Positions 1-51,093 of a stretch of DNA of 64,000 nt are shown here, piece by piece. Numbering within the stretch: position 1 is the stretch's first letter; each line of letters begins with the position of its first letter. The DNA lies in the IMG/VR virus record IMGVR_UViG_3300044691_000477, positions 1 through 64,000 of that record; one strand, 5' to 3'. This DNA is from a virus. The position numbers and the translations under genes were made by a program. The notes beneath the pieces are model-generated. The model saw only the letters and a list, made by a program, of their open reading frames with translations, did no database searches and was not told the origin of the DNA.

Positions 1-2111
1 CCGAGCACCGCGTTGCTCGAGTCGAGGAACCTGTAGTTGAAACGCCATGCTGTCGTCGGCGGGTTGGCAGGCGTCGTCCAGTTGACCACGCCGTAGGTGA
101 TCGTCGCTCGGTCCGAACCGCCGTCGGATGGGCCGACGGTGATGGGCTGCCACGCCAAGTCAGCCGGTGCGTTACGTGTCGTCGGCGGTGGCGGTGCTCC
201 ACCGCCACCTGTCGTGGGCGCGGGTGCACCCTCGCAGGTGTAGGGCACCTCAGTCGTCGGGCTTCCGACCGGGCCGATGGCGCCGTTGAAGGCGTTGGTG
301 CTGAAAACCATGGACGCTGCCCGTCCTGCTCCGATGAGCTGCAAGTCCAGAACGGCTGCCTCACGGTCGAAGGGACCGATGACGGTGCGCTCGACCTCAG
401 CGCCACTGGCGTCGTGGTAGGACACCACGACGTCCCAGAAGGTGGTGTCGGTGCCGGGGGTCCACTGCAGCTCGACGTGGGTGCTGTTCGGGTCACAGCG
501 GACCAGCGTGAGGACCGGAGAGCCACCCGCCGTCGGGGCTGTGCCAGTTCCCACTCCGATGACGTCTCCCTCGGTTCCAGAGCTGTTCACAACGCCGCCA
601 CTGGCGACCAGGCTGAACGACCCGCCGATCGGCAACTCGTTGTCTCGGAGCACGACGTCTGTGGCTCCGGTGAGCCGGTTGCGGGCGAGCTTGGAGACCA
701 CGACGAAGGAGACGCCAGGGATGCGTGAGACAAGGGTGTAGATGTCGGACAGCGCGATGCGACCACCGAAGTTGACGTTCGCGAAGGCAAGGAACTCAGT
801 CAGCGCGTTGTTGACGGCCTGACGCACCGGGAGTTGTGCGTATCGGTTGTCGACGGTGATCTCGAGAGCGACGTCGATGCTGACGTACTGCGGGTTCGCG
901 GCCACCACGGTGACGTTGGCGAGCTTGCGGGGCTGCAGGTAGGCCACGACGGCGTTGAGGGTGGCCTGGTCGGGCTGAGTGCCGCCTGGGGGCGCGACGT
1001 AGAGCGTGATGTTGGTGTAGACGCTGGCGACCGCCTTGGCCTTGGCGATCTGCACCGTGGGGACCGACAGCGCGAGCGCCTCGAAGTCGGACAGTGTGAT
1101 GGCACGATCATGAGCACGAAGCGCGCGTGGCGCGTTGGTACGGATGCTCTCGAGACTCTCAGCGTCAGTCCCTCCGCTGGCCTCGGTCTGGTTGGTGACC
1201 TCGATGACGACCGGGGTGGAGGGCACGACAGGCGGCAATGTCGTACTGGGCTGCCCGGTGCTCGGGTCGATGGGCGGGAGGTAGACGACATCGCCTGCAT
1301 CCACGACCTCGGTGATGGTGTTCACGAGCACGTTGCCGTCGATGCCACCACCGACGCGGTACTTGGCGTGCACGACGGCACCTCGAGGGGGTACGCGACC
1401 GTTGACACCATCGCCGAAGAGCACAGTGAGTGCTTCGTTCTCATCCATGCTGATGGCGTACGCCAAGTCGTTCGGGCCAGCGTCGAGCAGGTTGTTCACG
1501 AGGAACCAGACCAGCCCGTCGCCGCTGCTTTCCTCGACCACCCGCAACTCGAGCGACTCCGCGACCACCGGGGACTGCTGCAGGGTGTACTGCGCGTCCA
1601 GGTCACCACAACTCGTGGCCACGATCTCGTCATCGACCACGTTGCCTTCGGTGGCCGGCACGCTCAAGGTGATCGCGGCGCCGGAGCCGGGGATGTACAG
1701 GTCACTGTCGGTCTCGAAGGTGAGCTGATCGTTCACACCGTCAGGCGAGGTCTGCACTTCGAAGCCTGCCGGGATGACGACAGGCACTGTGGAGGTGACG
1801 GTGAAGGTGAGCGGCACAGTGGCGCTGGTTGCTGACCTAGGCGTGTAGTCGAGCAGCGCTGCGTGGGAGAGCACGCTGCCCCGCTGAGTGGCTGTCGACA
1901 GGAAGGACTCGTTGGCAATGCGGTCGCCGTAGTAGGACAGGATGTCGCCCTCGTAGGCGAACAACTCGACCAACATGACCCCGAAGTCGTTGAGGTCTCC
2001 GGTGCGGGCACCGCTCCAGTCGGGAGCGACGGTCTGGGCGTAGGCGAGCATGCTTTCGCGCAACCCTGCATAATCTCTGGCTGTGTAGTCGATGGCGCTT
2101 GGGGTGGTCAT
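1..2111 (-). CDS. Baseplate J-like (gp6/gpJ family) protein with C-terminal FN3-like extension; C-terminus lies beyond the left window edge
   Basis: Own translation: frame is open from ATG 2111..2109 (ATGA overlap with the gp25-like stop) to position 1. It is absent from the ORF track because there is no stop in the window. N-terminus TARDYAGLRESMLAYAQ..DFGVMLVELFAYEGDILSYYGDRIANESFLSTA fits the Baseplate_J pattern. Confidence 0.8.
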   Translation of the reverse strand, partial: MTTPSAIDYTARDYAGLRESMLAYAQTVAPDWSGARTGDLNDFGVMLVELFAYEGDILSYYGDRIANESFLSTATQRGSVLSHAALLDYTPRSATSATVPLTFTVTSTVPVVIPAGFEVQTSPDGVNDQLTFETDSDLYIPGSGAAITLSVPATEGNVVDDEIVATSCGDLDAQYTLQQSPVVAESLELRVVEESSGDGLVWFLVNNLLDAGPNDLAYAISMDENEALTVLFGDGVNGRVPPRGAVVHAKYRVGGGIDGNVLVNTITEVVDAGDVVYLPPIDPSTGQPSTTLPPVVPSTPVVIEVTNQTEASGGTDAESLESIRTNAPRALRAHDRAITLSDFEALALSVPTVQIAKAKAVASVYTNITLYVAPPGGTQPDQATLNAVVAYLQPRKLANVTVVAANPQYVSIDVALEITVDNRYAQLPVRQAVNNALTEFLAFANVNFGGRIALSDIYTLVSRIPGVSFVVVSKLARNRLTGATDVVLRDNELPIGGSFSLVASGGVVNSSGTEGDVIGVGTGTAPTAGGSPVLTLVRCDPNSTHVELQWTPGTDTTFWDVVVSYHDASGAEVERTVIGPFDREAAVLDLQLIGAGRAASMVFSTNAFNGAIGPVGSPTTEVPYTCEGAPAPTTGGGGAPPPPTTRNAPADLAWQPITVGPSDGGSDRATITYGVVNWTTPANPPTTAWRFNYRFLDSSNAVL

Positions 2112-2494
2112 ACCCCTCCTTCCAGCGTCATCGTCGTGGAGCGGACCTCTCCTTCGCCGGCTCCCACAGCCAGTGAGAACTGTACGGTCAGACGCACCGC
2201 TGCCTGCTGAGAGTCTTCCTGCGCCGAGATGCCGTGGAAGATGACGTTGGGGACGTCTGCAGCGAGCTTGTCGCTCAGGCGGGCAGCCAGAAGCTGCATC
2301 CGCAGCGGGTCGATGTTCTCGAAGATGAAGTCGCGTGTGTCGCTACCGAATTGCGGGTGCATGACCCGCTCGCCAGGCTGCGTGAACAGGTAGGTCTTGA
2401 GGTGCTGCACGACCGTCTCCACAGGGTCGCTCATCGTGGCTACCCGGCCCTGGCCATCAAGCCGGAATGGCACGCTGATCTCACGGTCGATCAC
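2108..2494 (-). CDS. gp25/GPW-like baseplate wedge protein
   Basis: ORF 2108..2530. Likely GTG start at 2494 (AGGAGG 6 nt upstream, GTGA overlap with upstream stop). FIFENIDPLRMQLLAARL is typical of the GPW_gp25 family. Confidence 0.8.
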   Translation of the reverse strand: MIDREISVPFRLDGQGRVATMSDPVETVVQHLKTYLFTQPGERVMHPQFGSDTRDFIFENIDPLRMQLLAARLSDKLAADVPNVIFHGISAQEDSQQAAVRLTVQFSLAVGAGEGEVRSTTMTLEGGV

Positions 2495-2859
2495 GACGCT
2501 CCTCCTGAGGTCAACCAAGTGCCGAGCCACACTGGGAAGTCGATGCTGCCGTGCTCAAACATCACCCATACGGCATCGCCAACCTTCGGCAGCCGCACTT
2601 TGATCTCGTCCGTCTGGCCGTGGCTGGTGACCGTGAAGGCGTCTGCATGGCTGTCGGTGGAGGCCCCGTTCACCGTCACCAGCGGACGGCGGGTGAGGAA
2701 TGGGATGCAGGGCATCGCCCAACCGAGCGTGCCTTCCCCGTTGAGAGCCGTCACCTTCACCTTGACGCGGCCTGCACCAGTTGGGTCCTGGGGGTCGACA
2801 ACGATGCCGCGGTAGATCCCGGCGAAGACCTCCTCGTGGTTGTGCTCGGGGGTTGTCAT
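2491..2859 (-). CDS. gpV/gp5-type baseplate spike (OB-fold) protein
   Basis: 122 aa. GIYRGIVVDPQDPTGAGRVKVKV...VGDAVWVMFEHGSIDFPVWLG resembles Phage_base_V. Sits between gpD-like and gp25-like genes. Confidence 0.75.
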   Translation of the reverse strand: MTTPEHNHEEVFAGIYRGIVVDPQDPTGAGRVKVKVTALNGEGTLGWAMPCIPFLTRRPLVTVNGASTDSHADAFTVTSHGQTDEIKVRLPKVGDAVWVMFEHGSIDFPVWLGTWLTSGGAS

Positions 2860-4271
2860 CGGGTGATCCGCACGGTGTGCGAACTCGCGCGCCAGCCGGT
2901 CAACTTCGGCTTGGGGGCACTCGCAGGAGTCTGCTTGCCGGCGACCTTGCTGTGTCCCCTGAGCACTGTCTTGGTGCTGTGTGCCGCCGCGGGCTTCTTG
3001 GTCGGCTTCTTGGTGGCAGTGCGGGTCACACTGCGGCGGTGCTTGTCGACGCGACGCGCGATGATGGGGTCGAGCACAAAGGGGAGTGTCACGTCATCAA
3101 GCTGGACTGCCTGCTCGATGGGAACGCAGTCCTCGAGAGGGTCATAGATCGGCTCTGGGGCTGTGGAGACTCGACTGTCGACGCTGACGTCACAGTCGGT
3201 CAGCAGCACCGGGTTGCCACTGTCTGATACCTGCACCGTGTCGCCGAGATCGCCGAGTTGGTCACGAGCTACCTGCGCCTTGAGCCGGTAGTCCGACAAC
3301 GTGATGTGGTGGTCGACGCCCGTGACGTACCAGTAGCCGTCACTGTCCTCATCGGTGCCGCTGAACCGCACTGTGCTGCCTTGGTGGACGCGGGTGTTCC
3401 CGCTCAACTCCGCTTCAGCGATCGTGTTGAAGCGGTGCAGGTCCATCTCGGCCTCGAGTTGTGACTGCGCGGCCAGTGCGGTGAGTGCAGGGCGGCGCAT
3501 GGTGACGCGACCGAATACCGGCTTGGAGATCTTGTGGGTGCCCGCGCCGCTGGCAGTAGCGCTGTGCACGATGCGCTGCAGAGTCGCCCCGGCGTTGGTG
3601 ACGCCGCCGAGCACTCGAGCACGGTTCTCGGTGCCTGGCACGGCCTCGCCGACCTTGTGGTCCACCTTGTAGATGGCTCCACGCTGCCGGTACGTGCCAG
3701 TCGTCAAGGTGAAGGTCGGTCGGTTGCGCGATGCCTTGGTGTCGATGGCGCGTCGGGTGAACACCAGGTCGGTCTTGTTGGCGTAGAAGGTGAAGCCGAC
3801 TCGCTTGCTCAGCCACACCAGGAAGTCCCAGTCGCTGCGCCCGTGCTGGGTGAGTTGCTCGTGGGTGAAGGTGTGCCGCATCGCTGTGAGACTGAAGCGG
3901 TGCTCCTTGGCGATCTGCGTGGCGACCTGGTGAGCGAGTTTGTTGACGAAGCTGCGCAGCCGCACCTGCTTCATGCGGTAGGAGGCGCTCACGCAGTAGA
4001 CCTGCAAGCTGATCAACTTGTGCTGACTCTGCTTCTGCACGACGTGATGGACGTAGCCGTGGAAGTACTCGACGTCATCAGGGCGCCAGCCCCAGGCAAT
4101 GGTGACCGGGGCTCCGTGGGCGTACTTGTTCTGGGCCTTGCTCTCGAGCTCCATGGTGATGATGGCAGTGTCGTGCTTCCACTCCCGCTGACGGATGAGC
4201 ACCTCACGGGGCTGCTTCTGCGGGACCTTTCGGTCGGTCTGGAAGGCGACAGTGGCGAATGGCCTTGACAT
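2856..4271 (-). CDS. Late-control-D/gpD-like baseplate hub protein
   Basis: 471-aa ORF between LysM/gpX-like and gpV-like genes, the canonical P2-type order. Family assignment is from context and general resemblance only. Confidence 0.6.
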   Translation of the reverse strand: MSRPFATVAFQTDRKVPQKQPREVLIRQREWKHDTAIITMELESKAQNKYAHGAPVTIAWGWRPDDVEYFHGYVHHVVQKQSQHKLISLQVYCVSASYRMKQVRLRSFVNKLAHQVATQIAKEHRFSLTAMRHTFTHEQLTQHGRSDWDFLVWLSKRVGFTFYANKTDLVFTRRAIDTKASRNRPTFTLTTGTYRQRGAIYKVDHKVGEAVPGTENRARVLGGVTNAGATLQRIVHSATASGAGTHKISKPVFGRVTMRRPALTALAAQSQLEAEMDLHRFNTIAEAELSGNTRVHQGSTVRFSGTDEDSDGYWYVTGVDHHITLSDYRLKAQVARDQLGDLGDTVQVSDSGNPVLLTDCDVSVDSRVSTAPEPIYDPLEDCVPIEQAVQLDDVTLPFVLDPIIARRVDKHRRSVTRTATKKPTKKPAAAHSTKTVLRGHSKVAGKQTPASAPKPKLTGWRASSHTVRITR

Positions 4272-4558
4272 CAGGCGCTCACCACCACAGGGATCTTCAG
4301 CAACGTGCCGGGCACCAGGTCGTCGGGGTAGGTCACGTTGGGGTTGGCGTCAGCGATGATCCACCAGAACTCTGGGTCGTCATACGCCACGCCGGCGAGT
4401 GAGTCGAAACGGTCGCCGAACACCACGGTGTGCACGGTGTAGGAGTCGGTCGGCGTCACTGTCCTGGTCGGGAACACGGTGGCCCGGTACACGCCGTCAG
4501 CAGCCTGCACGGGTACGACGTCGGCGGTCTCGTAGCGCGACTGCTCGAAGATGGCCAC
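4271..4558 (-). CDS. LysM-like tail protein X (gpX-like)
   Basis: Track ORF 4271..4690 is trimmed to GTG 4558 (GAGGAGG upstream; avoids overlap with the upstream gene). HTVVFGDRFDSLAGVAYDDPEFWWIIADANP..LVPGTLLKIP is LysM-like. Confidence 0.65.
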   Translation of the reverse strand: MAIFEQSRYETADVVPVQAADGVYRATVFPTRTVTPTDSYTVHTVVFGDRFDSLAGVAYDDPEFWWIIADANPNVTYPDDLVPGTLLKIPVVVSA

Positions 4559-4560
4559 GG

Positions 4561-5412
4561 CTACCTCCTCGAGGTCGTGTTGGAGACAGGCGTGCTCTTC
4601 TTGGTGGTGGCGGTCTTCACGCTGCTGTTGCGGGTGTACTTGTCGAAGGTCTGGCCGACGAGCTGCTGGCAGGTGAGCTGCACCCCACACCTCATCGGGA
4701 CCATGCGCTGACTGAACAGCGCGTAGGACACCTGCATGCTCGTGATGTAGGCGACGAAGCCGAGGCCAGAAGCCGCCTTGGTGTTAGCACTGCCGTCGCC
4801 GCCGCCGAAGATGACGTAGACCGGCGTGGCGTACATGTTGCCCTGCTCGGGTCCAACTGCGATCGAGCCGCCAGTCTTTGCGTCTTTGATGGTGCTGGCG
4901 AAGTTGAGTCGAGCACGTGTGACGCTCTCGAGAGCCCAGATGTCTTCGTAGCAGCCGACGTCGCGCAGATCCTTCAGACCCTTCTGCGGACCGTAAGCCA
5001 CCTCATAGGTGCGGTCGAAGAGCAAGCTGAAGGATAGTTGCGTGGTGCCTGGCAGGATGGCTGCGCCTTTTAGTGCCGCCGCAGTGAGGTTGCTTGGGTC
5101 GATCTGGCCTTCATCGATGGAGTAGCCAACGTCGATCTGGCCTGGGTTGAACAAGAAGCGGCAGGCGAACGGGAACTTCTGGTCACCAGCCACCATGTCA
5201 TCGGTCTGGCTGATAACGCCGGTGACGAGCGGGCTGCCCGTCTTCTTCAAGATGCTGTTGAGCCGGGAGTCGGCAGTCTGGTTGATGTAACTGGACGACT
5301 TCGAGGGGTTGGATATCCGACTCGACTGCAGACCTTGCCCCCTGTTGACCGCGACGGTCTTGGGCGCGGTCACGTTGATCGACCCACCACCGCCGTCCGG
5401 GACGAGCGCCAT
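4561..5412 (-). CDS. Tail tube-initiator / baseplate-proximal protein (CIS-tube-like N-domain, tentative)
   Basis: 283 aa directly after the tape measure. The FACRFLFNPGQIDV motif resembles the FxFNP motif of contractile-system tube-like N-domains. Confidence 0.45.
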   Translation of the reverse strand: MALVPDGGGGSINVTAPKTVAVNRGQGLQSSRISNPSKSSSYINQTADSRLNSILKKTGSPLVTGVISQTDDMVAGDQKFPFACRFLFNPGQIDVGYSIDEGQIDPSNLTAAALKGAAILPGTTQLSFSLLFDRTYEVAYGPQKGLKDLRDVGCYEDIWALESVTRARLNFASTIKDAKTGGSIAVGPEQGNMYATPVYVIFGGGDGSANTKAASGLGFVAYITSMQVSYALFSQRMVPMRCGVQLTCQQLVGQTFDKYTRNSSVKTATTKKSTPVSNTTSRR

Positions 5413-8400
5413 CAGCCACTCCCTACGGATTCAAGAGCGTGGTTCTGCTCGATCTCGTCCTTCACCATGGAGAGGAAGTCCTGCGCATCCTTCTGAGTTG
5501 CCTTGCCGACAACAGTGATTGGGGCCTGGATCGTCACGTCACGAAGACCACTACCGCCACTGCCTTGATGACTCTGCACCGTGCCGCCGGCGCGCTGACC
5601 CTTGCGGGCGATCATCGCGCGGACCTTGCGCGCCTCCTGCGCTGGCACAACCATCTCGTCGTTGTGCAGGTAGGCCAGGCCCTCTGCGGTGGAGTAGGAG
5701 CCCTGTGCGTAACCCTTGTACTTACCGCCATGCGTCATACTTTTGATACCGGGAACGTTGTCGAGGCTGCCGTAACGGCCCATCGCGTAACGCGTCCCAG
5801 CGATGATGTTGTCGACCGGGTTCCAGATGTCCCCGTGACCTGGAAGCGCCCAACGACTGAAGGTCGAGTCGATGGTCTGCATCAGACCCTTGGACGGGTG
5901 GCCAGCCTTGGCGTTGGAGTCCCAGTTGTTCTGGGCGTGCGGGTTGCCCCCGCTCTCGTGCTGAATGATGCTCGCGATAGACCCGCCGTACTTGCCGAAG
6001 TCGAGATGCATCAGGCCGAGTGCCGTCTTCACCCAACTTCCGACCGTGCCGCCAGGTGGCGGTCCGGTGGGCGTACCAGCACTCTGCGAGGTTGTCGTCC
6101 TGCCTGACCCTGCACCGCCAGCGCCAGACCGACCACCGCCGAAGTCGCCACCGAACAGCGACGGAGGAGTGAGCACCGAGGCCAGCGCGCTCTGCTCGTC
6201 GCCGAATCCGAAGACCGAGGACAAGTTGGCTGAGGACCGTGTGACCGGGCCGGTGCCACTGTCTCCCTGCGCTGCGGGGTTGCCCGCTGACACAACGCCC
6301 TTCAGCCCAGCGCCTCCACCAGCGACACGCCTGGCGTTGGTGGGAGCCCGAAGCTTGGTGTTGTGGATGTTCGCGCCCGTGTGTGGAGCCTCGACCATCT
6401 GCCCGTTGCCGATGTACATGGCCACGTGGTGAGCCGGGCTGCCGTAGAACACCAGGTCGCCAGGGACGAGCTGGTCTAGCGGGACATCGGCGCCAACCTG
6501 CTGCTGCTGCGCAGCCGTTCGTGGCAACTTGACGCCGTTCTGGCCGAAGGACCACTGCATCAGCCCCGAGCAGTCGAAGGACGTCTTCGGGTTCGAGCCG
6601 CCCCACTTGTACGGCCTGCCGACGAAGGACTCCGCAGTGGAGATGATGCCGCTGACCGAGCTGCTTGCCGCCGTGGGCTTGGTGCTCGACGCCACATTCG
6701 CGCTACCGCCAGCACCAGTCGCTCCACCTGGCTGACCGACGCTGTAAGACATCTGCTGCTGAGCGCTGCTGTTAAACATCACCCGCCCGCTGTCGGACCG
6801 CCCAGCGGCGTTGTTGCTGGCGCTGAGCTTGCTGCGGTACTTGGCCATGAGCTGCGCCAGTGCGTGCAGCGCCTTCAACTCATCGTCCTTCTTGCGACTC
6901 TGGGTGGAGCGCATCACCAACGGGCGAACGGTGCCCTCGTACTCAGCCTGTGCGTCAGGGAGACGACTGAACCCCTCGCTCGCCCAGCGGTGCAACATGC
7001 CTGTCAGGCTGCCGTCGTTGGCGTAGGCGTTCTTCTGCGCGATCTCGGTGTTGCTGGTGGCCCCGAACCAGCCGGCGTGCGCCATACCTGAGAGAGCGTG
7101 CCCTCCTGCGACGGTCACCCCTCCGACAATCGCGCCGGCCAGTGGGTTCACTGCGCCGACAGCTCCGACGACGCCGCCCATCACGCCGGCCTGTGTGCCG
7201 CCGATGCCATCAATCTGGCTGTACCCATACCCCGCTGCAGCCCCTTCCGCAGCACCGGCACCGAGACGACCTGCCAACCGCCCTCGAGGGGACCGCATGA
7301 ACGCCTTGGCGCGCGCGAAGCGACCAGCAGTGGTTCCCTCTTCGCCTGGCAGGCCACCAGGGAGACCGTCTCCTCCTCCCCCTCCACCACCGCCTCCGAA
7401 GCCACCACCTGGCATGTTCGTGACGTAGACCGGAGTGCCCATCAAGCCACTGGCCCCGAGTGCGCCCTTGGCCCCGCCCTTCAGACCGCCCTTGAGCCGA
7501 TTGACAAGCCCACCGCCTCCTCGGACCCCCCCGAAGAACCCACCAATGGTTTCGAGGTTGAAGGTGCTCTGGCCAGCCTGCTCGAGGGCACCCTTTGCGC
7601 CACCCGCACTTCCCGGCAAGAAGCTGGCCAGTGCACTGGCCCCACCAAGATTGACACCGATGTGATTGTTCAGTCCCGCGAATGCCTGCGTCAGTGTGTT
7701 GGTGACATTCGCCAGGTCATTGAACCCTCGCATCAGCGAGTCACGACCCTCTGTCATCGCCTCGGTCGTACGGTTGGTGGTGGCTCGTCCAGCTCGGTTC
7801 TGCGCAGATCTAATGCTGTCGAGGCCACCGAGGCGAGTGTCTCTTGTCTGCCGTCCTGCTGCTGCGTCTGACAGAGCCTTGTTCGTTCTATCGGGACTGC
7901 CGCCAAGGTTCGCCTGCACCAGGGCGTACATGCGGAACTGCTCCATGGCGTTGGCGTCGAGACCGAGACCGACCAGGGTGCGGTAGAGCGGGGCACCCGG
8001 CTGCATGCCCTCACCGATCATGTCCGCAGTGACCTTCTGGCCGCGGAAGACAAGCCGCTGGATCTGCTGGTAGATGCCTTGCGGGGTCTGCATGACGCCG
8101 CGGCTGCCTTGAGGCGTCACCCCAAGGCTGCGCATCCGGTTCTGCGTCTGCGCGCTGTAGAGGCTCGAGACAGCAGCGGCGGACCCCTGGAAGCCGGCTG
8201 AGGGGTTGAGAGCTGAGAGCTGCCCCACCGACTGCAGAGCACGGTTGGTGCGCGCGTTACCCAGACCCGCGCCGAGTGCCCCCTGGATCTGCCCGACACC
8301 ACCCATCAGGTCACTGGCCGACTGGTAGCCGCCGTACCCCTGCAGGGTGCTGATGTTCCCGCGGTAGGCGCCCTGGCTGAAGCCCTGCCCACCGGACAGC

Positions 8401-8968: not shown

Positions 8969-9253
8969 ATGAAGTACAGCCAGGACTACTGGGACTGGTA
9001 CAACTCCCTCGGCCCCATGGACCAGTACTTCGCCGATCTGCGGCGTGATGGCGATTGGTTCATGAAGTGGCTTATCAACCCCGCTTGCTGGCTGTTCGGC
9101 CTCTTCGTGGTCCTGATCATCGTGGCGTCGTTGTTCGGCAGCAGCGGACCATTCGCGCACCAGTCATGCCAGACCCTGCCGACGACGGATGGCAATACAG
9201 GCGTGACCTCCACTTACACATCCTGTGAATCAGTTGGCCCGTTCTGGTGGTAG
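8969..9253 (+). CDS. Small membrane protein (moron, opposite strand to tail genes)
   Basis: 94 aa with one hydrophobic helix (CWLFGLFVVLIIVASLFG). It has its own promoter and RBS and is wedged between the tape measure and the chaperone extension. Confidence 0.7.
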   Translation: MKYSQDYWDWYNSLGPMDQYFADLRRDGDWFMKWLINPACWLFGLFVVLIIVASLFGSSGPFAHQSCQTLPTTDGNTGVTSTYTSCESVGPFWW

Positions 9254-10376: not shown

Positions 10377-10416
10377 GATGTTCTCCTCACAGGTGGTGTA
10401 CCGAGTGGTGTGTTGC

Positions 10417-12922: not shown

Positions 12923-12977
12923 GCGTGTCTCCTCGCGTAGTTGGCTTGGGTTCCCGAGTGGCGTGGTGCCCGATGAA

Positions 12978-13706
12978 CTACTCCGATTCGATGGCTAGGA
13001 CAGTGAGGTCGACGCGAGCCACCGCGGCAAGGGCAACCAGGTCACTGTGGAACAGCTCGCTGGAGACACCGACCGTGTACATCTTTCGGAACAGACGCTT
13101 GCCGTCACGCTCGCGCATATCCCCGTTCGTGGGACCTGAGAGCAGGTCCAGTCGCCGTGTGCTGTTGTCGTCAGGAGCGGCGGCACTCGCAACCATGTCG
13201 AGGGCGCCGAAGCGTGGCTCGAGCCGGTCGAACATGATCTGCGTCATGATCTCGCGGTCGTGCCGGGCGTAGCGCGCCCACTGCGTGATCTGGTACTGCA
13301 ACGTGAAGGGGATCGGCAACTCCCCTCGGGCGCCGCCTGCAGGCATCCCCATGGGGGTGTAGGCGTTGTCGCTGGTTCCGTAGTCCTGATAGCCACGGTG
13401 CTCACGCTCGGTGTCCCGGATCGGGGTCAGAAAATCGATGGTGATGTAGGGGTAGGTCTGACGGCGCACCTCGTTCTGCGGCAGCCTGAAGAACACCGGC
13501 ACGACACGGAGCTTGGAGTTGAGTACCTCGAGCTCCCCATCGTCATCGCCGTCGGGGTCGATGACACGAGCCTCGTTGGCGACGGGCACCCGGATGCCCT
13601 GGAGCTTGTGCTTCAAGGCAATGTCTTCACGGGTGATCCAGCCGGCGTTCAGCGCGTCGGCGCTGTCGAAGTCGACATCCAGATCAGCACCGACGGGCGT
13701 GGTCAC
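12978..13706 (-). CDS. Hypothetical virion protein upstream of sheath (possible tail terminator/completion)
   Basis: 242-aa ORF with high GC3, overlapping the upstream gene. The function is guessed from position only. Confidence 0.6.
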   Translation of the reverse strand: MTTPVGADLDVDFDSADALNAGWITREDIALKHKLQGIRVPVANEARVIDPDGDDDGELEVLNSKLRVVPVFFRLPQNEVRRQTYPYITIDFLTPIRDTEREHRGYQDYGTSDNAYTPMGMPAGGARGELPIPFTLQYQITQWARYARHDREIMTQIMFDRLEPRFGALDMVASAAAPDDNSTRRLDLLSGPTNGDMRERDGKRLFRKMYTVGVSSELFHSDLVALAAVARVDLTVLAIESE

Positions 13707-14137
13707 CGGATCACCTTGGCGTCGAGTTCACGGGTCATCTCGTTGGACCACATGGTGATGATGTCCTTGGCGACCTTGGCTGCTGTGGTGCGGACCCAGG
13801 CGCTCGGCGGCGAATCCAGCCCACCCCACTCGCGTTCCTCCGCCTCCTCGGCTGCTGGGCTGGTTCCGTCGACACCGACGATGACGTCCCCGAAGGAGCC
13901 ACGCTCACGCATCACCAGGTCGTTCATGTGCCCGTCGTGGACCTTGACGGCACTTACCATGGTGGCACTCCCTCCAGCCCGCCGAGCGGCGTCCTGCAGG
14001 GGCTGCACGAGACGTCCAGCGACCCGTACGGCACTGTCGCGGGCGATGAGGGAGGCGTGTGTTCCTGCCATCCCTGAAGCCCTGCGGGCGAAGTCGGGGG
14101 AGGAGATCAGTGGCTTGTTGGCCATGCTGGCGCTCAC
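13703..14137 (-). CDS. Head-tail connector protein (HK97 gp10-like, tentative)
   Basis: 144 aa. Size and position fit a neck protein. There is only a weak resemblance. Confidence 0.5.
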   Translation of the reverse strand: MSASMANKPLISSPDFARRASGMAGTHASLIARDSAVRVAGRLVQPLQDAARRAGGSATMVSAVKVHDGHMNDLVMRERGSFGDVIVGVDGTSPAAEEAEEREWGGLDSPPSAWVRTTAAKVAKDIITMWSNEMTRELDAKVIR

Positions 14138-14254
14138 CTCCTTGCGCGACGTCGTTCAGCGGGTCTTGCTGCGTGCTCGACGGTACGGGCGAGGTGGCGA
14201 TGCATTGCGTAGAGCACCAGGGCCTGAGATGCTTCTTTCGCTGAAGTAGTGGAT

Positions 14255-14339
14255 GAGAGGCCCCTGGTCGCGGCTGTCACCGCGACGGACTCAGGGGCCT
14301 CTCGCCATGACGAAGGCCCCCTCCCGAAGGAGAGGGCCT
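14255..14339 (-). terminator. Two tandem strong hairpins ending the 14393..14830 transcription unit
   Basis: 12-bp perfect arms GAGAGGCCCCTG/CAGGGGCCTCTC (14255..14266 and 14292..14303). An 11-bp stem at 14314..14324 / 14329..14339 has a UUCG loop on the minus-strand RNA. Confidence 0.6.
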
Positions 14340-14392
14340 CGCCGATCCGAGCCTGCTGCAGTGCGGAGTGTGCCTACCCGGATACGCCGATC

Positions 14393-14830
14393 CTAGTCCA
14401 GGGGCTCCTTCTCGACCCAGACCCAGCCGAAGCCGACGTTGTATTTGCCATTCAGGGTCGGCTCGATGCGCTCCTCTACGACCCACTTCGGTTTGCAGGT
14501 GCCGTCGCAAAACTTGACGCTGCCGATGGCGCCAGAAGTGGACTCATGCCCATCACACTCGCGGTCGTCGTTCAGGGTCTTCAGAACGAGGACGTTACCG
14601 TCGAAGCGCAGGCGCTGCTCGGACCCCTCGGTATTGACCCACGTCGCGATCTTCTCGACCTGCTCGCGGGCGACGTAGGGCGCCGCGATGAAGCCATTCC
14701 AGCGGTCCTTCGGGTCATAGACCGCCTCGACCTCGAGGTTGCCCTCCTCCTCGGGTCCGTCGATGACGATGGTGCCCGCGGTCAGGACGGTGATGTGCGG
14801 ATTGGCATTGAGGCGGTCGATCTCGTTCAT
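14393..14830 (-). CDS. Hypothetical protein (cassette gene A)
   Basis: 145-aa ORF with AGGAGC RBS, its own promoter and its own terminators. Confidence 0.75.
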   Translation of the reverse strand: MNEIDRLNANPHITVLTAGTIVIDGPEEEGNLEVEAVYDPKDRWNGFIAAPYVAREQVEKIATWVNTEGSEQRLRFDGNVLVLKTLNDDRECDGHESTSGAIGSVKFCDGTCKPKWVVEERIEPTLNGKYNVGFGWVWVEKEPLD

Positions 14831-14864
14831 GATCTGCTCCTAGTCGTCGTGCTCCGGTGCCATG

Positions 14865-14915
14865 AGGATAGCACCATGCAACGTTGTTGTACAAGTACGT
14901 TGCACCTGCTACATT
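14865..14915. promoter_or_regulatory. Back-to-back promoters sharing palindromic -35 TTGTACAA, embedded in a 28-bp near-palindrome
   Basis: Plus strand: TTGTAC(14887..92)-N17-TACATT(14910..15). Minus strand: TTGTAC(14894..89)-N18-TATCCT(14870..65). Arms TGCAACGT/ACGTTGCA lie at 14877..84 and 14897..904. Confidence 0.55.
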
Positions 14916-14956
14916 TCACTGCATCGGAGCACAGCGACTACTGGGAGCAGTACGAC

Positions 14957-15343
14957 ATGCGCAACATCGAGTCCAGCCAAATCGACGGCCCCTTCGACCT
15001 TCAACCGAAGAACGACGGCGAACTCACCTTCACGCTCGCCCTCAGACTCTCCAGCAACCACGGCTACGCGACGCTGGTCGACGGCCACTCGCACGCAGGG
15101 CGTCGCTTCAAGGTCAAGCACATCGACGTGCTGGTCACCGTCGTTGCTGGCAAGGTTGAGTACTACATCCGCTCCTCCGCGAGCGGCCCCCTCATCCGCA
15201 AGGATGGCAGCGAGGGCATGATCATCACCACGCATGGTGTCTTCCTCACCGCCGTACAGACCGAAGCTGTGAAGCGCGCCGCTCTCGCCGCCTACACCAC
15301 GGCACTAGAGCAAGCGGCGGTGTACGCGCTCACCCAGGAGTAA
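14957..15343 (+). CDS. Hypothetical protein (cassette gene B)
   Basis: The last 128 codons of track ORF 14249..15343 start at ATG 14957. The upstream part of that ORF is antisense to a real gene. A hairpin follows. Confidence 0.75.
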   Translation: MRNIESSQIDGPFDLQPKNDGELTFTLALRLSSNHGYATLVDGHSHAGRRFKVKHIDVLVTVVAGKVEYYIRSSASGPLIRKDGSEGMIITTHGVFLTAVQTEAVKRAALAAYTTALEQAAVYALTQE

Positions 15344-15352
15344 CCCGCTCAA

Positions 15353-15401
15353 CCAGAAGCCCCGCTGTGCCTGCTCCAAACAGGCGCGGTAGGGCTTCTG
15401 G
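15353..15401. terminator. Bidirectional hairpin between convergent genes
   Basis: 10-bp perfect arms CCAGAAGCCC/GGGCTTCTGG with additional inner pairing. Confidence 0.6.
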
Positions 15402-15412
15402 CGTTGGTGAGG

Positions 15413-15949
15413 TCAGCCGCTCCATCGAGCGAAGGCAGCGCTGTCAACCAGTTCGTCGGGACGAAGTTGGGTGGCTTCGACACGGAGCACAGTGTCGGCA
15501 CTTGCCTGTTCGAAGTGTCCACTGGTCTGCACGGCGTCCACGTCGAATACCCGGTTACGGAAGACGAAGCGGTCGAGTTGGCGCAGTTCACGGTCCTGCA
15601 CCAGATTCCTGTCCAGGCCAGCTCGTCGGACCTGCTCGTAACTCATGACCAGCGTCATGTGGTCGTAGCTGGCGTAGCCACCCTCAGCAGCTTCCTCTTC
15701 GCCCTGCGCTGGCACCGCTGACAGCACTGGGATCCGCAGCGGGCCGATGTAGGAGCGGCCACCGCCGACGAAGCCCTCGTCGTAGATGTCATCGACCTGG
15801 GTGGTTGCGACGTCGAGGAAGAACCACAGCACCTCGGTGCCGTAGACCTGCTGGTAGTCCTCCATGCCGGCGTCGATTCGTCGCCGCTCGTCCTTGACGC
15901 CGAAGAACCGACCTCGAGGTCGGTTGAAGAAGCGGGTTCCTCCGCTCAC
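15413..15949 (-). CDS. Hypothetical head-tail joining protein
   Basis: 178-aa ORF with GTG start, coupled to the upstream small ORF by a GTGA overlap. Confidence 0.7.
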   Translation of the reverse strand: MSGGTRFFNRPRGRFFGVKDERRRIDAGMEDYQQVYGTEVLWFFLDVATTQVDDIYDEGFVGGGRSYIGPLRIPVLSAVPAQGEEEAAEGGYASYDHMTLVMSYEQVRRAGLDRNLVQDRELRQLDRFVFRNRVFDVDAVQTSGHFEQASADTVLRVEATQLRPDELVDSAAFARWSG

Positions 15950-19311: not shown

Positions 19312-19364
19312 GCCACGATTCTGCCGTCAGGACGTCCCAGGATCGGGGAGAGGTTCGGTACGCC

Positions 19365-19400
19365 GAGAGGCCGTCCCCGATGCTACGAAGACGGCCCCTC
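19365..19400 (-). terminator. Hairpin downstream of the major capsid gene
   Basis: 11-bp stem (one G-U pair on the minus-strand RNA), arms at 19365..75 and 19390..400. Confidence 0.5.
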
Positions 19401-20404: not shown

Positions 20405-20446
20405 GGGGGATGTCTCCTTCGTGACTGTGGTGGGTGCTCGGATGGA

Positions 20447-21355
20447 CTACCCGAACATGCCCCTGCCCTGCTGCTGCTGTGAAGCAGCTCCCAGCAGCCG
20501 TCCCCGAAGTTGTGAATACTGCGTCATGTCCATCGCCTGGAGTTCCTCCAGGCTCAACGTTTGGTATCCCGAGTCGTTGTCCAATGGCCCCACTGGCGGT
20601 GCCGTGACCCCGACACCCCTGGCCGGCGGCAGAGCCGTTCGACCAGCGGTGGCCGTAGCCACATCGCTGAGAATAGACGCGCTCCGCTCCGCAAGTGCGG
20701 AGATGCTCGCCTCGATCTCCTCCCGGTTGTTGCCGAGCACCAGGTCGCGCATCTGCGGGATGATCTGCGGGCCGAGTCCACGACCAGGCCCGTTGGGGTC
20801 CTCGTTGGTCAGCGCGGTGTTGCGGTACTGCATTAGCTCGTTGAACTCGCGCTCCTTGGCGATGATCGCCTGCGACTGCTCGAGCTGCGTCTGCAGACCC
20901 CCGACCTGCTGAGTCATCTGCGCCTGGAACTCGCTGAGCTTCTCGCCGAAAGACAACTCGGCCAGTCGCTTCTCCTCGGCGGCGTCGGCAGCAGCCTTGA
21001 GCGCTGCCTCCTCGGCCTGCTGGCGAGTGGTGAGGTCGGTGCTGAAGGCGCTCATCTGCTGCTCGAGAGCGGCCACTCGCTGCTTCTCGGCTTCGATGGT
21101 CTCGTAGAGCTTGTCCTTCTCCTGCTTGCGCGCAGCCTCGACGGCAGCGGCAACGCGCGGGTCCGCCAAGATGTCAGCAGGGATCTGCTGCACCGTGGGT
21201 GCTGGAGCGGGTGGGGCAGCAGGAATCACCACCGCCGGCTCCGTGGCGGGGATGGTCATGACCATCTCGCCGTATCGGTCACGGTTGAGGGCCAGCAGGC
21301 CCTTGACGTCACCGGCCTCGAGCAGTGCCAGCGTGGTGAGGGCGTGCTTGTTCAT
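20447..21355 (-). CDS. Scaffolding protein
   Basis: Track ORF trimmed to ATG 21355 (GGAGAA RBS). 302 aa, Ala/Glu/Gln-rich coiled coil, upstream of the capsid gene. Confidence 0.75.
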   Translation of the reverse strand: MNKHALTTLALLEAGDVKGLLALNRDRYGEMVMTIPATEPAVVIPAAPPAPAPTVQQIPADILADPRVAAAVEAARKQEKDKLYETIEAEKQRVAALEQQMSAFSTDLTTRQQAEEAALKAAADAAEEKRLAELSFGEKLSEFQAQMTQQVGGLQTQLEQSQAIIAKEREFNELMQYRNTALTNEDPNGPGRGLGPQIIPQMRDLVLGNNREEIEASISALAERSASILSDVATATAGRTALPPARGVGVTAPPVGPLDNDSGYQTLSLEELQAMDMTQYSQLRGRLLGAASQQQQGRGMFG

Positions 21356-28786: not shown

Positions 28787-29010
28787 CCGTTCAAAAAGTC
28801 TTGGAGGAGGATGGTGGGCTTCTGCTGGTGCGTGAGCACGATCCGCACGCTGATGAACTCGGTCTTGGCCGACTCAGCACCGACGTACTTCGCAAGATCG
28901 CGACGTGCCATGTCGCGTGCCTTGTTGGAGTCATAGGCGCGAATGACCCAGCCACGCGGCTCATCGTGGCCAACATTCTCGTTCTTCCGTTTCAGGACGA
29001 AGATCTGCAT
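28783..29010 (-). CDS. Hypothetical protein
   Basis: 75-aa ORF overlapping its neighbours. Confidence 0.6.
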   Translation of the reverse strand: MQIFVLKRKNENVGHDEPRGWVIRAYDSNKARDMARRDLAKYVGAESAKTEFISVRIVLTHQQKPTILLQDFLNG

Positions 29011-29744
29011 CAGATCACCGCTGCGTCGATGACCTCAGCACGGATGCCACGGTCATAGGTATCGACGCCCGTGTCGTCCTGGTCGCTGAAACCTGCGGAC
29101 CCACCGCTGCTCGACCAGACCTCGAGGCCGTTGTCGATGGCTGCGCGAACGATGTCGCTAGCCTCCTGCTCGTTGGCCCCGCCCGTGACCTTCACGGTCA
29201 ACGTGACGAGACGCTCGGTCGGTTCGGTCGCAGCGTTGGTGCGATGAGGAAAGACCTCGATGTTGTGGCCCTTGCGGTAGACGCACCCAACAACGGGACA
29301 CGGCTCGGTGCTGGTCTGGTCCTCGTCGGCGACCTGCTTGTACGACGGGACGATGGCCTCCAGCAGGTAGCGCCAGTTGATGCGCCCGCCTATGTCAGGC
29401 AAGATCAGCCGCAGGGTGTCGACACCGTGTACGAAGTAGTTGACCTCCCCCAGTCGAGCGGCCTTCTTGACACGCCACTGCTCGGGGACCTCTGCGTCGT
29501 CGTCGGGGTCACCGTAGTCTTCGCGGGTCTCGAGTTGCGCATCCTCACCCCCGTAGGAGACGACCTGCCACTGCCCAACCTCGGGGTGTCCGAGGTCGTT
29601 GTTGACGTAGATGGCGAGACCATCACCTCGTGCGTGTGCTCGCTGGCCAAGTTGCTCGACGGCGTTAAGCCAGTCGAGGTCGCCTGCCGCCGCATCGGCG
29701 GCTTTGGTGCGGAACGTGTTGATGTCCCAGACCTGGACGGTCAT
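29010..29744 (-). CDS. Hypothetical protein, first gene of the virion arm
   Basis: 244-aa ORF with GGAGCAC RBS and the conserved leader. Confidence 0.7.
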   Translation of the reverse strand: MTVQVWDINTFRTKAADAAAGDLDWLNAVEQLGQRAHARGDGLAIYVNNDLGHPEVGQWQVVSYGGEDAQLETREDYGDPDDDAEVPEQWRVKKAARLGEVNYFVHGVDTLRLILPDIGGRINWRYLLEAIVPSYKQVADEDQTSTEPCPVVGCVYRKGHNIEVFPHRTNAATEPTERLVTLTVKVTGGANEQEASDIVRAAIDNGLEVWSSSGGSAGFSDQDDTGVDTYDRGIRAEVIDAAVI

Positions 29745-29787
29745 GGTGTGCTCCTTGTCAGTGCTCCGAGTGGGTGGTGCGTTGACT

Positions 29788-29865
29788 ACGGTATCACCTA
29801 CGCAACCAGTATGTACAGCAGCGTTGCGTAGGTGCTATTCTAATTGCACTCGGAACACCTACGCA
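29788..29865. promoter_or_regulatory. Divergent promoter/operator region between the virion arm and the early arm
   Basis: Central palindrome TGTACA (29812..17) can serve as -35 for both strands (plus -10 TATTCT 29836..41; minus -10 TACCGT = 29793..88). The 10-mer CACCTACGCA occurs at 29795..804 and 29856..65, and inverted at 29825..34. Confidence 0.55.
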
Positions 29866-29878
29866 TCTGGAGCACATC

Positions 29879-30259
29879 ATGGGATCACTCGCTGCCGCTG
29901 ATTTCGCCAATCAGGTGAACGAGGGCAACATCCAGCTAAGGACCGCCATCTCGTGGCACCTGACCAGCAACCACTACCCGCCGCACCCGGCCTTCATGGT
30001 CGATCCCGTCGTCGCCGCAGTACTTCTCGCGCGCGACGAGGAGTGGGACACCGAGATTGACCTGCCGAAGGGCTGCGAGACGCACAACGCCCTCGTGCCG
30101 TACGGCCAGGAGCACTGCACCTTCGGCGAGTCCGACGAGGACAAGGCCGACTTCGGTGCCTGCGTGCTGGTGGCCGCTGTCGAGTGGCAGGACCGCACCG
30201 ACGGCAAGGCCAGCGTGAGCGACATCATCGAGTCCTTCCACCTCGACTCGTTCGTCTGA
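29879..30259 (+). CDS. Hypothetical protein
   Basis: 126-aa ORF with GGAGCAC RBS. Confidence 0.7.
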   Translation: MGSLAAADFANQVNEGNIQLRTAISWHLTSNHYPPHPAFMVDPVVAAVLLARDEEWDTEIDLPKGCETHNALVPYGQEHCTFGESDEDKADFGACVLVAAVEWQDRTDGKASVSDIIESFHLDSFV

Positions 30260-40023: not shown

Positions 40024-40350
40024 CTACGATCCAGCGGCCTCTTTGACGGGGACAGCAAGATCTCGGTCAACGAGTTCGGGTGATGTGAAGATCTTGCCCG
40101 AACCGGCTGCGGCTTCCTCGTCCTCGAGGAAGTCGAGCAGACACACCAGGTCGCAGAAGCGACCGGCACTCCACGCCTTGTCCGGTGGCGCGAACGACGC
40201 ACGCAGACACTTCTTCGACGTGAGGTCTACCCCGCACCCACCACAGACGTGGATCTCCCTCGGCGGTGCGCCGCGCTTACGCTCGCGCTGACCTCGGATG
40301 TAAGCCTGCTGCTCCTCGAAGGTCATCCTCGAGAACGTCTTCTTGCCCAT
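40024..40350 (-). CDS. Zinc-finger protein
   Basis: 108 aa with CGGCG..C. Confidence 0.6.
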   Translation of the reverse strand: MGKKTFSRMTFEEQQAYIRGQRERKRGAPPREIHVCGGCGVDLTSKKCLRASFAPPDKAWSAGRFCDLVCLLDFLEDEEAAAGSGKIFTSPELVDRDLAVPVKEAAGS

Positions 40351-40537
40351 CAGGACGTCTTACGCAGCGACGGGGCGGGGGACCTTGGCGTCAGGGTGCT
40401 CGAGCAGGATCTCCTCGCAGACACTGCAGGGATCGAGCAGCACGACACCACGCTCGTCAAAGACGAGTCGCGCACCGTGCGGACAGAACTCCATGCCACA
40501 AGAATACCCAGGTTCGTAGCAGGTGCAACCCTGTTGT

Positions 40538-40723
40538 TCATTCGGGTTGCCTTGGACGCCACGCTTCGACCATCTCTCGGATGACGACTCCCCATCTCGA
40601 GGTGTGCCACCTGCAGGCAGCGCTCATGAACGTGCCGCCCCTCTGTACGTTGATAAGGCTCTCCACAGAGGAGTAGACGTAGGCACCGATGATCGCGTCG
40701 TTGTAGCAAAACTCGCACTTCAT
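40538..40723 (-). CDS. Cys-rich small protein, possibly the 5' part of a frame-broken gene
   Basis: ATG 40723 (MKCEFCYNDAIIG..). The +1 frame continues with NEQQGCTCYEPGYSCGMEFCPHG.. to TAA 40360 and has no start codon of its own before codon Met at 40497. Confidence 0.5.
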   Translation of the reverse strand: MKCEFCYNDAIIGAYVYSSVESLINVQRGGTFMSAACRWHTSRWGVVIREMVEAWRPRQPE

Positions 40724-42599: not shown

Positions 42600-42913
42600 C
42601 ACCGACCACGCTTCGGGATGATGATGGTCTCGTGGTTCGCGCTGTAGGGACTGACTCGCCCCGCCATGCTGTCGTCCTGTCCGGTGTAGTCGTCGGTCCA
42701 GAGCAGATGCAGATGCACCTCGGCGTACTGAGCGTCCCACCACTCGAGGGTCTTAAGCCGCTCGATCAGACCCTCGACCCTGCCGTCGTTCGAAATCTTG
42801 CCCTCGAAGTAGTAGCCGTAGGTCACCTCGGGGATCGGCACGAAGCCAAGGTCGGCAAGCTCGTCAGGTCCCCTGTGCACGGTCATCATGACGATGCTGG
42901 TCACGTTGCTCAT
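42599..42913 (-). CDS. Hypothetical protein adjacent to the HerA-like gene (TGATG overlap)
   Basis: ATG 42913. 104 aa. Confidence 0.65.
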   Translation of the reverse strand: MSNVTSIVMMTVHRGPDELADLGFVPIPEVTYGYYFEGKISNDGRVEGLIERLKTLEWWDAQYAEVHLHLLWTDDYTGQDDSMAGRVSPYSANHETIIIPKRGR

Positions 42914-50927: not shown

Positions 50928-51029
50928 TCACCTCTCCCGCTCGAGCAACTCGAGCAGCGCCGTCGCCTCCTGCAGGTCCATCGTGACCGTGATCTGCGGT
51001 GAGACCGCCTTGACCGTGCTCTCTGCCAT
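50928..51029 (-). CDS. Very small ORF (33 aa)
   Basis: MAESTVKAVSPQITVTMDLQEATALLELLERER, with GGAGCAC RBS. Confidence 0.35.
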   Translation of the reverse strand: MAESTVKAVSPQITVTMDLQEATALLELLERER

Positions 51030-51093
51030 GTCCGTGCTCCAGGTGAGTGATCCGAAGGGCGCACCGTACCAACTACCGCGACGCCGCGCTGCC

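Follow-up and report, generated by a model that had tools for sequence, protein, structure and literature searches.

Morons are defined as DNA that is extra relative to related phage genomes and that carries its own promoter and terminator (Juhala and Hendrix, summarised in PMC3594210); the original one, gene 15 of HK97, belongs to the tail operon (PMC3594210). In the virulent phage SPP1, an insert in the late region (ORFs 8-10 and oriR) is bracketed by transcriptional signals (PMC6316719). In Cluster K mycobacteriophages, short conserved blocks (SAS and ESAS), some of them with inverted repeats, precede start codons (PMC3203893). The element described here is a divergent two-gene cassette carried on positions 1 to 64,000 of the viral record IMGVR_UViG_3300044691_000477 (the whole 64,000-nt stretch that was analysed, hereafter the window), which represents part of a genome of ~108 kb. 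It comprises gene A (145 aa, 14393-14830, minus strand), gene B (128 aa, 14957-15343, plus strand), a 126-bp spacer between them, and strong hairpins on both flanks. The block at about 14176-15412 is probably a lineage-specific, self-contained accessory expression cassette of the moron type, placed in a hypervariable slot among neck genes. The hairpins, both open reading frames (ORFs), the spacer, its palindrome, and the promoter hexamers listed in the original prediction were all present at the positions given there and exceeded chance.

The window phage, large and of a soil type, has a contractile tail and a high G+C content (~64%; 0.637 in the window). The minus strand of the window encodes the terminase, portal, capsid, sheath (phrog_23, E 2e-40), tube, tape-measure-like protein (1162 aa), and baseplate genes. 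The closest annotated phages were the Streptomyces BRock-like myoviruses of ~113 kb, with identities of 73% for the capsid and 37% for the sheath. The phage can be placed as a ~108-kb high-GC myovirus and a distant kin of the BRock-like phages. BRock, the nearest cultured relative, was reported to be virulent and to have no lysogeny genes (PMC7453282). The relatives used in the comparative analysis were BRock, LuckySocke, and further loci (designated by L-numbers) that had been retrieved from contigs of viral and metagenome collections.

The cassette and its insertion slot

Homology to the closest relative, L007, ended at ~15413, in gene g178, and restarted at ~14175, upstream of gene g144, at both the nucleotide and the protein level. 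Genes A and B were absent from every relative examined, and the possibility that both are conserved neck proteins found in all relatives did not hold. The comparison of presence and absence among relatives thus showed the block (14176-15412, the cassette with its flanking hairpins) to be specific to this lineage, with borders nearly as originally drawn, and the description of a self-contained divergent two-gene unit that lies as an insertion between neck genes and has promoter-like and terminator-like signals of its own was borne out. When the region and the two proteins were compared with 50,697 phage records by megablast and tblastn, no relatives of the cassette emerged, and an indexed protein search with the two proteins returned self-matches only. 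The orientation of gene A is that of the late operon, gene B alone being reversed.

The upstream border of the slot is formed by g178 (15413-15949, minus strand), a conserved gene of the neck/head-completion region with orthologs in L007 (55%), L017, L010, BRock, and LuckySocke. The downstream border is the small conserved gene g144 (13703-14137, minus strand), whose residues 1-142 share 51% identity with an ORF of L007. Because this 140-aa ortholog aligns over residues 1-142, g144 is a full-length gene, and the 85-aa version of some public gene calls is a truncation; it probably comprises 140 aa and starts at ATG 14125. The next gene, g242 (12978-13706, minus strand; PF23961, E 0.095), lies just upstream of the tail sheath gene, has orthologs in all relatives, and gave a weak neck/tail-terminator signal.

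The interval between the orthologs of g178 and g242 varied strongly in length. The two genes overlap in L017, the capsid of which is 79% identical, and are separated by ~65 bp in L022 and by ~160-175 bp in L020 and L021. The interval contains 0.5-0.8 kb in L023 and L010, 2 kb in BRock, 4.2 kb in LuckySocke, and ~6 kb in L012, and in L007 its 2.6 kb hold three co-oriented genes and the g144 ortholog. The comparison indicates a hypervariable slot between conserved neck genes. Several of the alternative occupants are fibre-like or tailspike-like, and the slot appears to be an exchange point for neck or collar fibres. None of the occupants in relatives resembled gene A or B, was reversed, or was bracketed by hairpins. 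Tailspike/fibre-like genes with hyaluronidase-like and polysaccharide-deacetylase-like PHROG matches were located in the slot of L003 (3410-7563), L004 (5691-7590), L012 (~800-7000), and L007 (5373-7450). A mobile element was also considered for the block and rejected, with no target-site duplications, terminal inverted repeats, or paralogs being found.

The G+C content of the cassette (0.626 vs 0.637 for the window), its G+C content at third codon positions (GC3), and its codon usage were like those of the phage's own genes. In composition and codon usage, the cassette is native to the phage and not foreign.

The same cassette was found in one other sequence, a 2.3-kb contig from another metagenome (L002), which is 98.8% identical. 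In this variant contig, the frame of gene B survives a 3-bp deletion, the changes in the flanking genes fall almost exclusively at third codon positions, and gene A and the spacer are unchanged. The divergence from window positions 13626-15891 was patchy: at 15666-15701, for instance, 36 bp contained six changes, whereas the adjacent 190 bp contained none. Such a pattern suggests tracts of recombination rather than uniform drift. The use of the variant contig as a selection test was dropped; the invariance of gene A and the spacer falls inside this patchy, recombination-like pattern.

Promoters, palindrome, and hairpins

The spacer contains a 28-bp palindrome (TGCAACGTTGTTGTACAAGTACGTTGCA, 14877-14904), which occurs once in the window and in which the putative promoters P2 and P3 overlap around a self-complementary TGTACA flanked by GCAAC and GTTGC. 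The predicted promoter of gene A, P2 (14865-14894, minus strand), consists of TTGTAC at 14894-14889, GTTGC at 14882-14878, and the extended -10 element TGCTATCCT at 14873-14865. The predicted promoter of gene B, P3 (14887-14915, plus strand), is composed of TTGTAC at 14887-14892, GTTGC at 14899-14903, and the extended -10 element TGCTACATT at 14907-14915. The -35/-10 pairs are TTGTAC-N17-TACATT on the plus strand and TTGTAC-N18-TATCCT on the minus strand, and a TG upstream of both -10 hexamers makes each an extended -10. Extended -10 (TGn) promoters are read by the primary sigma factor, and their -35 match to TTGACA is usually poor; a simple sigma-70 scan did not call the cassette promoters. 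A leader block, CGGAGCAC, follows for gene A (14849-14856, minus strand) and for gene B (14925-14932, plus strand), as do the Shine-Dalgarno regions AGGAGCAG of gene A (14834-14841, minus strand) and GGGAGCAG of gene B (14943-14950, plus strand). Each arm of the spacer shows one order: TTGTAC, ACGTTGCA, TGCTAnnnT, CGGAGCAC, GGAGCAG, and ATG. The arms are collinear from the centre outward, with identity in 50 of 71 columns, and the outer arms remain similar after removal of the core (z 5.5). The whole spacer is an imperfect palindrome (fold of -65 kcal/mol, z -7.5; z about -7 on either strand) and has the lowest G+C content of the region (0.54).

The cassette promoters share their layout with a family distributed over the phage genome. 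The composite TGTAC-N6-GTTGC-N3-5-TGnTAnnnT was detected in five copies in the window (0.00 expected), before genes A and B, before the small gene orf94, and on both sides of a divergent region at 29745-29878; the shorter GTTGC-N3-5-TGnTAnnnT was also present in five copies (0.07 expected). The extended -10 motif TGnTAnnnT itself was found six times in the whole 64 kb, whereas shuffles that preserve dinucleotides led to an expectation of 23 +/- 4.6. All six positions (8930, 14865, 14907, 29788, 29833, and 51063), two of them in the cassette, lie just upstream of start codons, and the motif was not found in the structural modules of high-GC relatives. The gap of 6 nt between TGTAC and GTTGC is invariant over all instances, and GGAGCA followed after 4-7 nt by ATG is common to all promoters of the family. 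Because TGnTAnnnT is avoided elsewhere and placed solely before genes, there is good indirect evidence that these sites are functional promoters.

Since TGTACA is its own reverse complement, two promoters placed back to back create a palindrome, and the same arrangement explains the symmetry of the whole 126-bp spacer. The 28-bp "operator" is best read as the fusion of two promoters of the phage-wide type, and no repressor is needed to explain it. Of the operator-like palindrome described originally, the palindrome stands, while its reading as an operator private to this gene pair does not: the same design recurs at three other sites next to unrelated genes. A dimeric regulator may bind the rigid TGTAC-N6-GTTGC dyad, of which the palindrome alone is no proof.

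Such a dimeric protein, encoded by the phage or the host, would use GCAAC-N5-TGTACA-N5-GTTGC as an operator or activator site and switch the cassette together with the other three sites. This widening of the originally proposed co-regulation to a regulon is a separate claim, compatible with a moron-type cassette, and it can be entertained only tentatively. The dyad occupies four intergenic sites (S1 to S4, with S2 in the cassette), the one-sided S1 keeps four of the five bases of the other half-site, the TGTAC-GTTGC spacing is a rigid 6 nt, and the cassette site covers both -35 elements, by which one dimer could control both directions. However, the symmetry of S2 and S3 is fully explained by back-to-back promoters, and the left half of S1 is the ribosome-binding region of the tape-measure gene, possibly by coincidence. 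No recognisable DNA-binding domain was found in the cassette proteins or in the neighbours of the other sites, and the element did not recur in other viral contigs. The palindrome was tried as a recurring element in IMG/VR and rejected; the five isolated matches, without a -10 and on unrelated contigs, were judged to be due to chance. An extracytoplasmic function (ECF) sigma factor reading of the palindrome (GCAAC ... CGTT, after the AAC/CGT-type promoters) was considered and set aside, the spacing being 1-3 nt too short and CGT being absent at two of the four sites.

Gene A is followed by a tandem pair of hairpins. The first one (14314-14339) has an 11-bp stem with arms at 14314-14324 and 14329-14339 and a 4-nt loop, and the outer one (14255-14303) has a perfect 12-bp stem (inverted repeat arms 14255-14266 and 14292-14303) around an inner 8-bp hairpin. 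Another hairpin (15353-15401), with 21-nt arms at 15353-15373 and 15381-15401, separates the convergent ends of gene B and g178. As minus-strand RNA, the tandem hairpins folded with -72.6 kcal/mol (z -6.9), and as plus-strand RNA, the hairpin at 15353-15401 folded with -43.5 kcal/mol (z -5.5); none of 200 shuffles was equally stable in either case. According to a 60-nt sliding fold, window position 14251 is the strongest hairpin of all 64 kb, 15346 ranks among the top few, and the sole comparable hairpin within the structural operon follows the major capsid gene. Compared with canonical intrinsic terminators (a GC-rich stem-loop with a U-tract), the stems are present and the tails are not U-rich, and a simple terminator scan called none of the cassette hairpins. 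Because U-tracts are lacking and no promoter was found before g144, the hairpins are suggested to attenuate or stabilise transcripts, with incomplete termination. The hairpin directly downstream of the major capsid gene (19350-19400) is GC-rich, strong, and without a U-tract. Attenuators by which the level of capsid mRNA is raised above that of the genes further downstream usually lie at this position.

The other sites of the promoter family lie outside the neck region. Site S1 with promoter P1 (8901-8938, plus strand) is predicted to drive the reversed gene orf94 (8969-9253, plus strand), encoding a membrane protein of 94 aa with one clear transmembrane helix; the promoter reads TTGTAC-N17-TACGAT with a TG upstream. 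The gene orf94 is located in the tail module between g70, a chaperone-region gene, and the tape-measure gene, and was absent from all relatives; its genomic position is that of the HK97 gene 15 moron (PMC3594210). Site S3 (29788-29841) is a second back-to-back pair (P4 on the minus strand and P5 on the plus strand) with the palindrome GCAAC-N5-TGTACA-N5-GTTGC. The divergent region around it (29745-29878) separates a 244-aa gene (29010-29744, minus strand) from an operon beginning at 29879 on the plus strand, which is headed by P5 (29812-29841) and includes a topoisomerase-like gene (phrog_6247, E 3e-100) and a DUF2786 protein. This region looks like a main divergent control region of the genome. 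Site S4 (40525-40550) is a variant palindrome with the centre TGTTCA and a minus-side promoter-like GTTGCACCTGCTACGAA upstream of a Cys-rich ORF of 44 aa. Downstream of S4 lie this CxxH...CxxC ORF (40360-40494, minus strand) and a 108-aa Cys-rich ORF (40024-40350, minus strand), and the site itself closely follows the gene for a HerA-like ATPase whose C-terminus carries an ArsR-type helix-turn-helix (HTH) domain (40761-42743, minus strand). The sixth extended -10, TGGTACGGT, on the minus strand at 51027-51071, is followed by a CGGATCAC leader and GGAGCA before a 36-aa ORF; the TGTAC/GTTGC upstream element is absent there.

The leader block is not confined to the promoter family. The composite pattern CGGnnCAC ... 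GGAG showed a modest excess (8 vs 2.2 expected) upstream of further genes, late ones among them, and since the block also stands before other phage genes, the cassette uses the phage's native style of translation initiation. CTCGGnnCAC ... GGAG was observed in the translation-initiation regions at 10377-10416, 12923-12977, 20405-20450, and others.

The products of genes A and B

Genes A and B are genuine protein-coding genes, because the codon-position G+C content, the codon usage, and the in-frame 3-bp indel of the variant contig agree with coding. The G+C contents at the first, second, and third codon positions (0.62/0.38/0.88 in gene A and 0.62/0.43/0.84 in gene B) resembled those of known structural genes. 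The codon-usage cosines to structural genes were 0.83 and 0.89 for genes A and B, respectively, and 0.82-0.87 for the neighbouring genes. Gene callers placed the start of gene B at an in-frame ATG 14876 or TTG 14900 (155 or 147 aa), and these longer versions were rejected. ATG 14957 was kept as the start, because the upstream extension has no coding signature (GC3 0.63 vs 0.84) and its mirror sequence before gene A is interrupted by stops.

Remote homology and structure prediction, the means by which the two proteins had been proposed to be checked, were applied to both. The original statement that neither protein is recognisable holds for gene B, an orphan, whereas gene A fits the family phrog_9945 with an additional Cys/His module. 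An exhaustive HMMER search revealed 36 distant homologs of gene A, with phmmer E-values down to 5e-20. Their alignment defined a family core with a YDPxxRWNG[FW] motif, an FDGxVLV strand, and a C-terminal ERIEPxxxGxYxVGxxWxW, in which W, G, and P columns are invariant across gene A and its homologs. The family phrog_9945 was matched by 10 of the 14 aligned homologs (best E 8.6e-11) and only weakly by gene A itself (E 0.007). By transitive homology through these members, gene A is assigned to this uncharacterised phage family. The model of gene A obtained with AlphaFold had a predicted local distance difference test score (pLDDT) of 82 and was confident except in the insert. Compared with the PDB, this model had no analogue (best E 0.24), and a fold search gave a single unnamed viral match.

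The insert of gene A is a 23-residue Cys/His module (residues ~91-113, ECDGHESTSGAIGSVKFCDGTC) placed in a loop of the core. Its Cys-His-Cys-Cys residues probably bind zinc. The module was also found stand-alone in other small proteins and, in two larger ones of ~260 aa each, preceding DUF6011; the proteins with the module are P0012-P0015, P0023-P0027, P0029, P0033-P0035, and P0037. Many small metagenomic proteins contain it in the highly conserved form EC[ED]GHESTxGxIGxVxxCDG[TS]C, either on its own or as part of a fusion. No annotation or literature on the module was found, and a literature search on DUF6011 was empty.

The genomic contexts of the gene A homologs were diverse. Some of them lie within early-type arrays of small genes (WhiB, L5 gp82-like, SprT-like, and methylase genes). 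For others, the neighbours are a portal fusion and a Zeta-toxin-domain protein, or the surrounding phage array is unannotated. No homolog is a neck gene, and none has a gene B-like neighbour. The closest homolog, which has no Cys insert, was found on a 91-kb contig (L005, 10001-13297); a portal-fusion protein of 1753 aa is encoded two genes before it, and a protein of 850 aa with Zeta-toxin/AAA domains one small gene after it. A search with the family pattern in 185,579 reference bacterial genomes was empty, such a pattern-based search being of limited sensitivity.

Gene B had no homologs in any search of phage records, viral contigs, reference genomes, and indexed proteins. Its model, beta-rich with a C-terminal helix, was of low confidence (pLDDT 47), and the fold matches were meaningless. 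Searches of Pfam, NCBIfam, PADLOC, and PDB sequences yielded no curated family for gene A and no match for gene B. Inspection detected no transmembrane segment in either protein. Neither matched an HTH or other DNA-binding family, and nothing ties the module of gene A to DNA.

Interpretation and comparison with known systems

The transcriptional architecture of the cassette can be proposed with reasonable confidence. Genes A and B diverge from two predicted promoters that belong to the phage-wide family, with the layout TGTAC-N6-GTTGC-N3-5-TGnTAnnnT, CGGAGCAC leader block, GGAGCA, and ATG. The host RNA polymerase would read the extended -10 elements from predicted starts near 14858 (leftward) and 14922 (rightward), producing two short monocistronic mRNAs that would be ended or stabilised at the GC-rich hairpins 14339-14255 and 15353-15401. 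These hairpins would also shield the cassette from transcription of the late operon. Because the same promoter type heads an operon for DNA metabolism, the cassette is most likely expressed with non-structural (early or middle) genes instead of the virion genes around it. Both products are probably accessory proteins, soluble in the cytoplasm, that would act on the host or on competing elements.

Several points weigh against the proposed moron-type cassette. The function of the promoters and terminators is read from the sequence, and the temporal class from just one operon with annotation. P4 is directed toward the packaging and structural cluster, by which the promoter family could be general or even late, and gene A, co-directed with the late operon, may be expressed by read-through. 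The hairpins are without U-tracts and were passed over by the terminator scan; efficient termination at them would demand another promoter for the downstream sheath and tube genes, and none was recognised between the hairpins and g144 (14138-14254). The native composition is unlike that of classical morons, and the unchanged gene A and spacer of the variant contig are not clean evidence of selection.

A bolder proposal goes beyond the cassette as such. It holds that GCAAC-N5-TGTACA-N5-GTTGC with an extended -10 marks an undescribed, phage-specific transcription class with a dimeric factor, which expresses genes A, B, and orf94 alongside the replication genes, and that A and B are a new host-takeover or counter-defence pair. 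This is speculative and rather improbable.

It is unlikely that gene A, and perhaps gene B, is a late virion or assembly protein in a neck/fibre slot, with P2 as an internal booster for the tail genes. The co-orientation of gene A with the late operon, the fibre-like or tailspike-like genes that fill the slot in relatives, the lack of another recognised promoter upstream of g144 and the sheath gene, and the direction of P4, which faces the packaging and structural cluster, would fit such a role. Nevertheless, the homologs of gene A are located in small-gene arrays of non-structural type or in other surroundings, no resemblance of either protein to virion families, including those of fibres and necks, was seen in sequence or structure, and gene B is antisense to the operon. 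Moreover, two strong hairpins stand between gene A and g144, and the relatives make virions without genes A and B.

The original prediction had also named lysogenic conversion and a defence/counter-defence cassette. It is very unlikely that the cassette is a lysogenic-conversion moron of the classical kind, which a repressed prophage would express to the benefit of the lysogen. Although promoter and terminator-like elements of its own within a late operon fit the classical description (PMC3594210), no integrase or other lysogeny gene was present among the scanned ORFs or the gene calls with precomputed Pfam hits, covering ~81 of ~108 kb. The reported virulence of BRock, the native composition, and the lack of homologs or a prophage footprint in the limited pattern-based search of bacterial genomes also argue against it. 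A known type of defence or counter-defence pair, such as a toxin-antitoxin or an abortive-infection system, is a still fainter prospect. Two small uncharacterised genes under shared control in a hot-spot, together with the Zeta-toxin-domain protein near the gene A homolog of L005, are compatible with such a pair. However, no Pfam, NCBIfam, or PADLOC match was obtained for either protein, the known defence-system models of PADLOC also had no match among the tested homologs, and genes A and B were never found together elsewhere. Toxin-antitoxin pairs are normally co-oriented in one operon, unlike the divergent genes A and B.

Least probable of all is that the spacer palindrome acts as a structure in itself (a cruciform, a replication origin, or an RNase III/occlusion hairpin that hides the ribosome-binding site of gene A in late read-through RNA): the stable fold with both Shine-Dalgarno regions paired, the low G+C content, and the SPP1 origin in a comparable late-region insert (PMC6316719) would suit it, but the symmetry is explained element by element by two copies of promoter and leader, transcripts from P2 or P3 hold one arm each, and no iterons, AT-rich unwinding element, Rfam match, or credible RNA family was found.

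The present significance of the moron-type cassette is modest, because the functions of both proteins are unassigned. The cassette is cleanly delimited, with borders known within a few bases, has predictable promoters, and offers a natural empty-site comparison in the under-studied large high-GC actinobacterial myoviruses. Both small proteins are convenient candidates for screens, by expression or deletion, of host takeover, exclusion, or counter-defence, and the compact, statistically clear promoter family could predict transcription units in this phage group. The locus also illustrates that operator-looking symmetry can arise merely from the fusion of two promoters with a self-complementary upstream element.

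Among known elements, the conserved blocks of the window resemble the SAS/ESAS of mycobacteriophages in placement only, before a subset of genes in an actinobacteriophage; the sequences differ, the window blocks include a clear extended -10 at about six sites, and no homology is implied. They share with extended -10 promoters TGnTAnnnT at every instance and the poor match to TTGACA at -35, whereas the rigid upstream TGTAC-N6-GTTGC falls outside the generic definition. In regulator-operator divergent pairs, such as CI-Cro and TetR-TetA, the comparison fails on the palindrome design, which in this phage is not specific to one gene pair and occurs at three further sites. Head-tail connector and neck proteins differ in that genes A and B are absent from all relatives and show no similarity to virion proteins. 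With phrog_9945, gene A shares the family core and differs by the 23-residue Cys/His insert.

The lambdoid morons are similar in that the cassette is extra DNA between genes adjacent in relatives, lies inside a late structural operon with promoter-like and terminator-like signals of its own, and encodes small proteins unrelated to virion assembly. It differs from them in having two divergent genes with a fused bidirectional promoter instead of one gene, in its native G+C content and codon usage and promoters of the phage's own family, and in residing in a phage that shows no temperate features. Of the marks by which morons are recognised, the position between neighbours was found, a promoter of its own was found at the sequence level only, and, as candidates for terminators of its own, very stable hairpins without U-tracts, not called by the terminator scan, stand at both ends; a differing G+C content was not found. 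Like the SPP1 insert, the cassette is an autonomous segment with small genes of unknown function that breaks the synteny of virion genes in a lytic-type phage, although the host group is another one, the sequence is unrelated, the genes are divergent, and evidence of an origin was not found. Because the cassette lacks the compositional mark of morons and its phage is without sign of lysogeny, it seems closer in spirit to the bracketed segment of SPP1 than to a classical moron. The cassette is an autonomous accessory unit of the known moron-like type, distinguished by a bidirectional promoter in which two members of a phage-wide family are fused.

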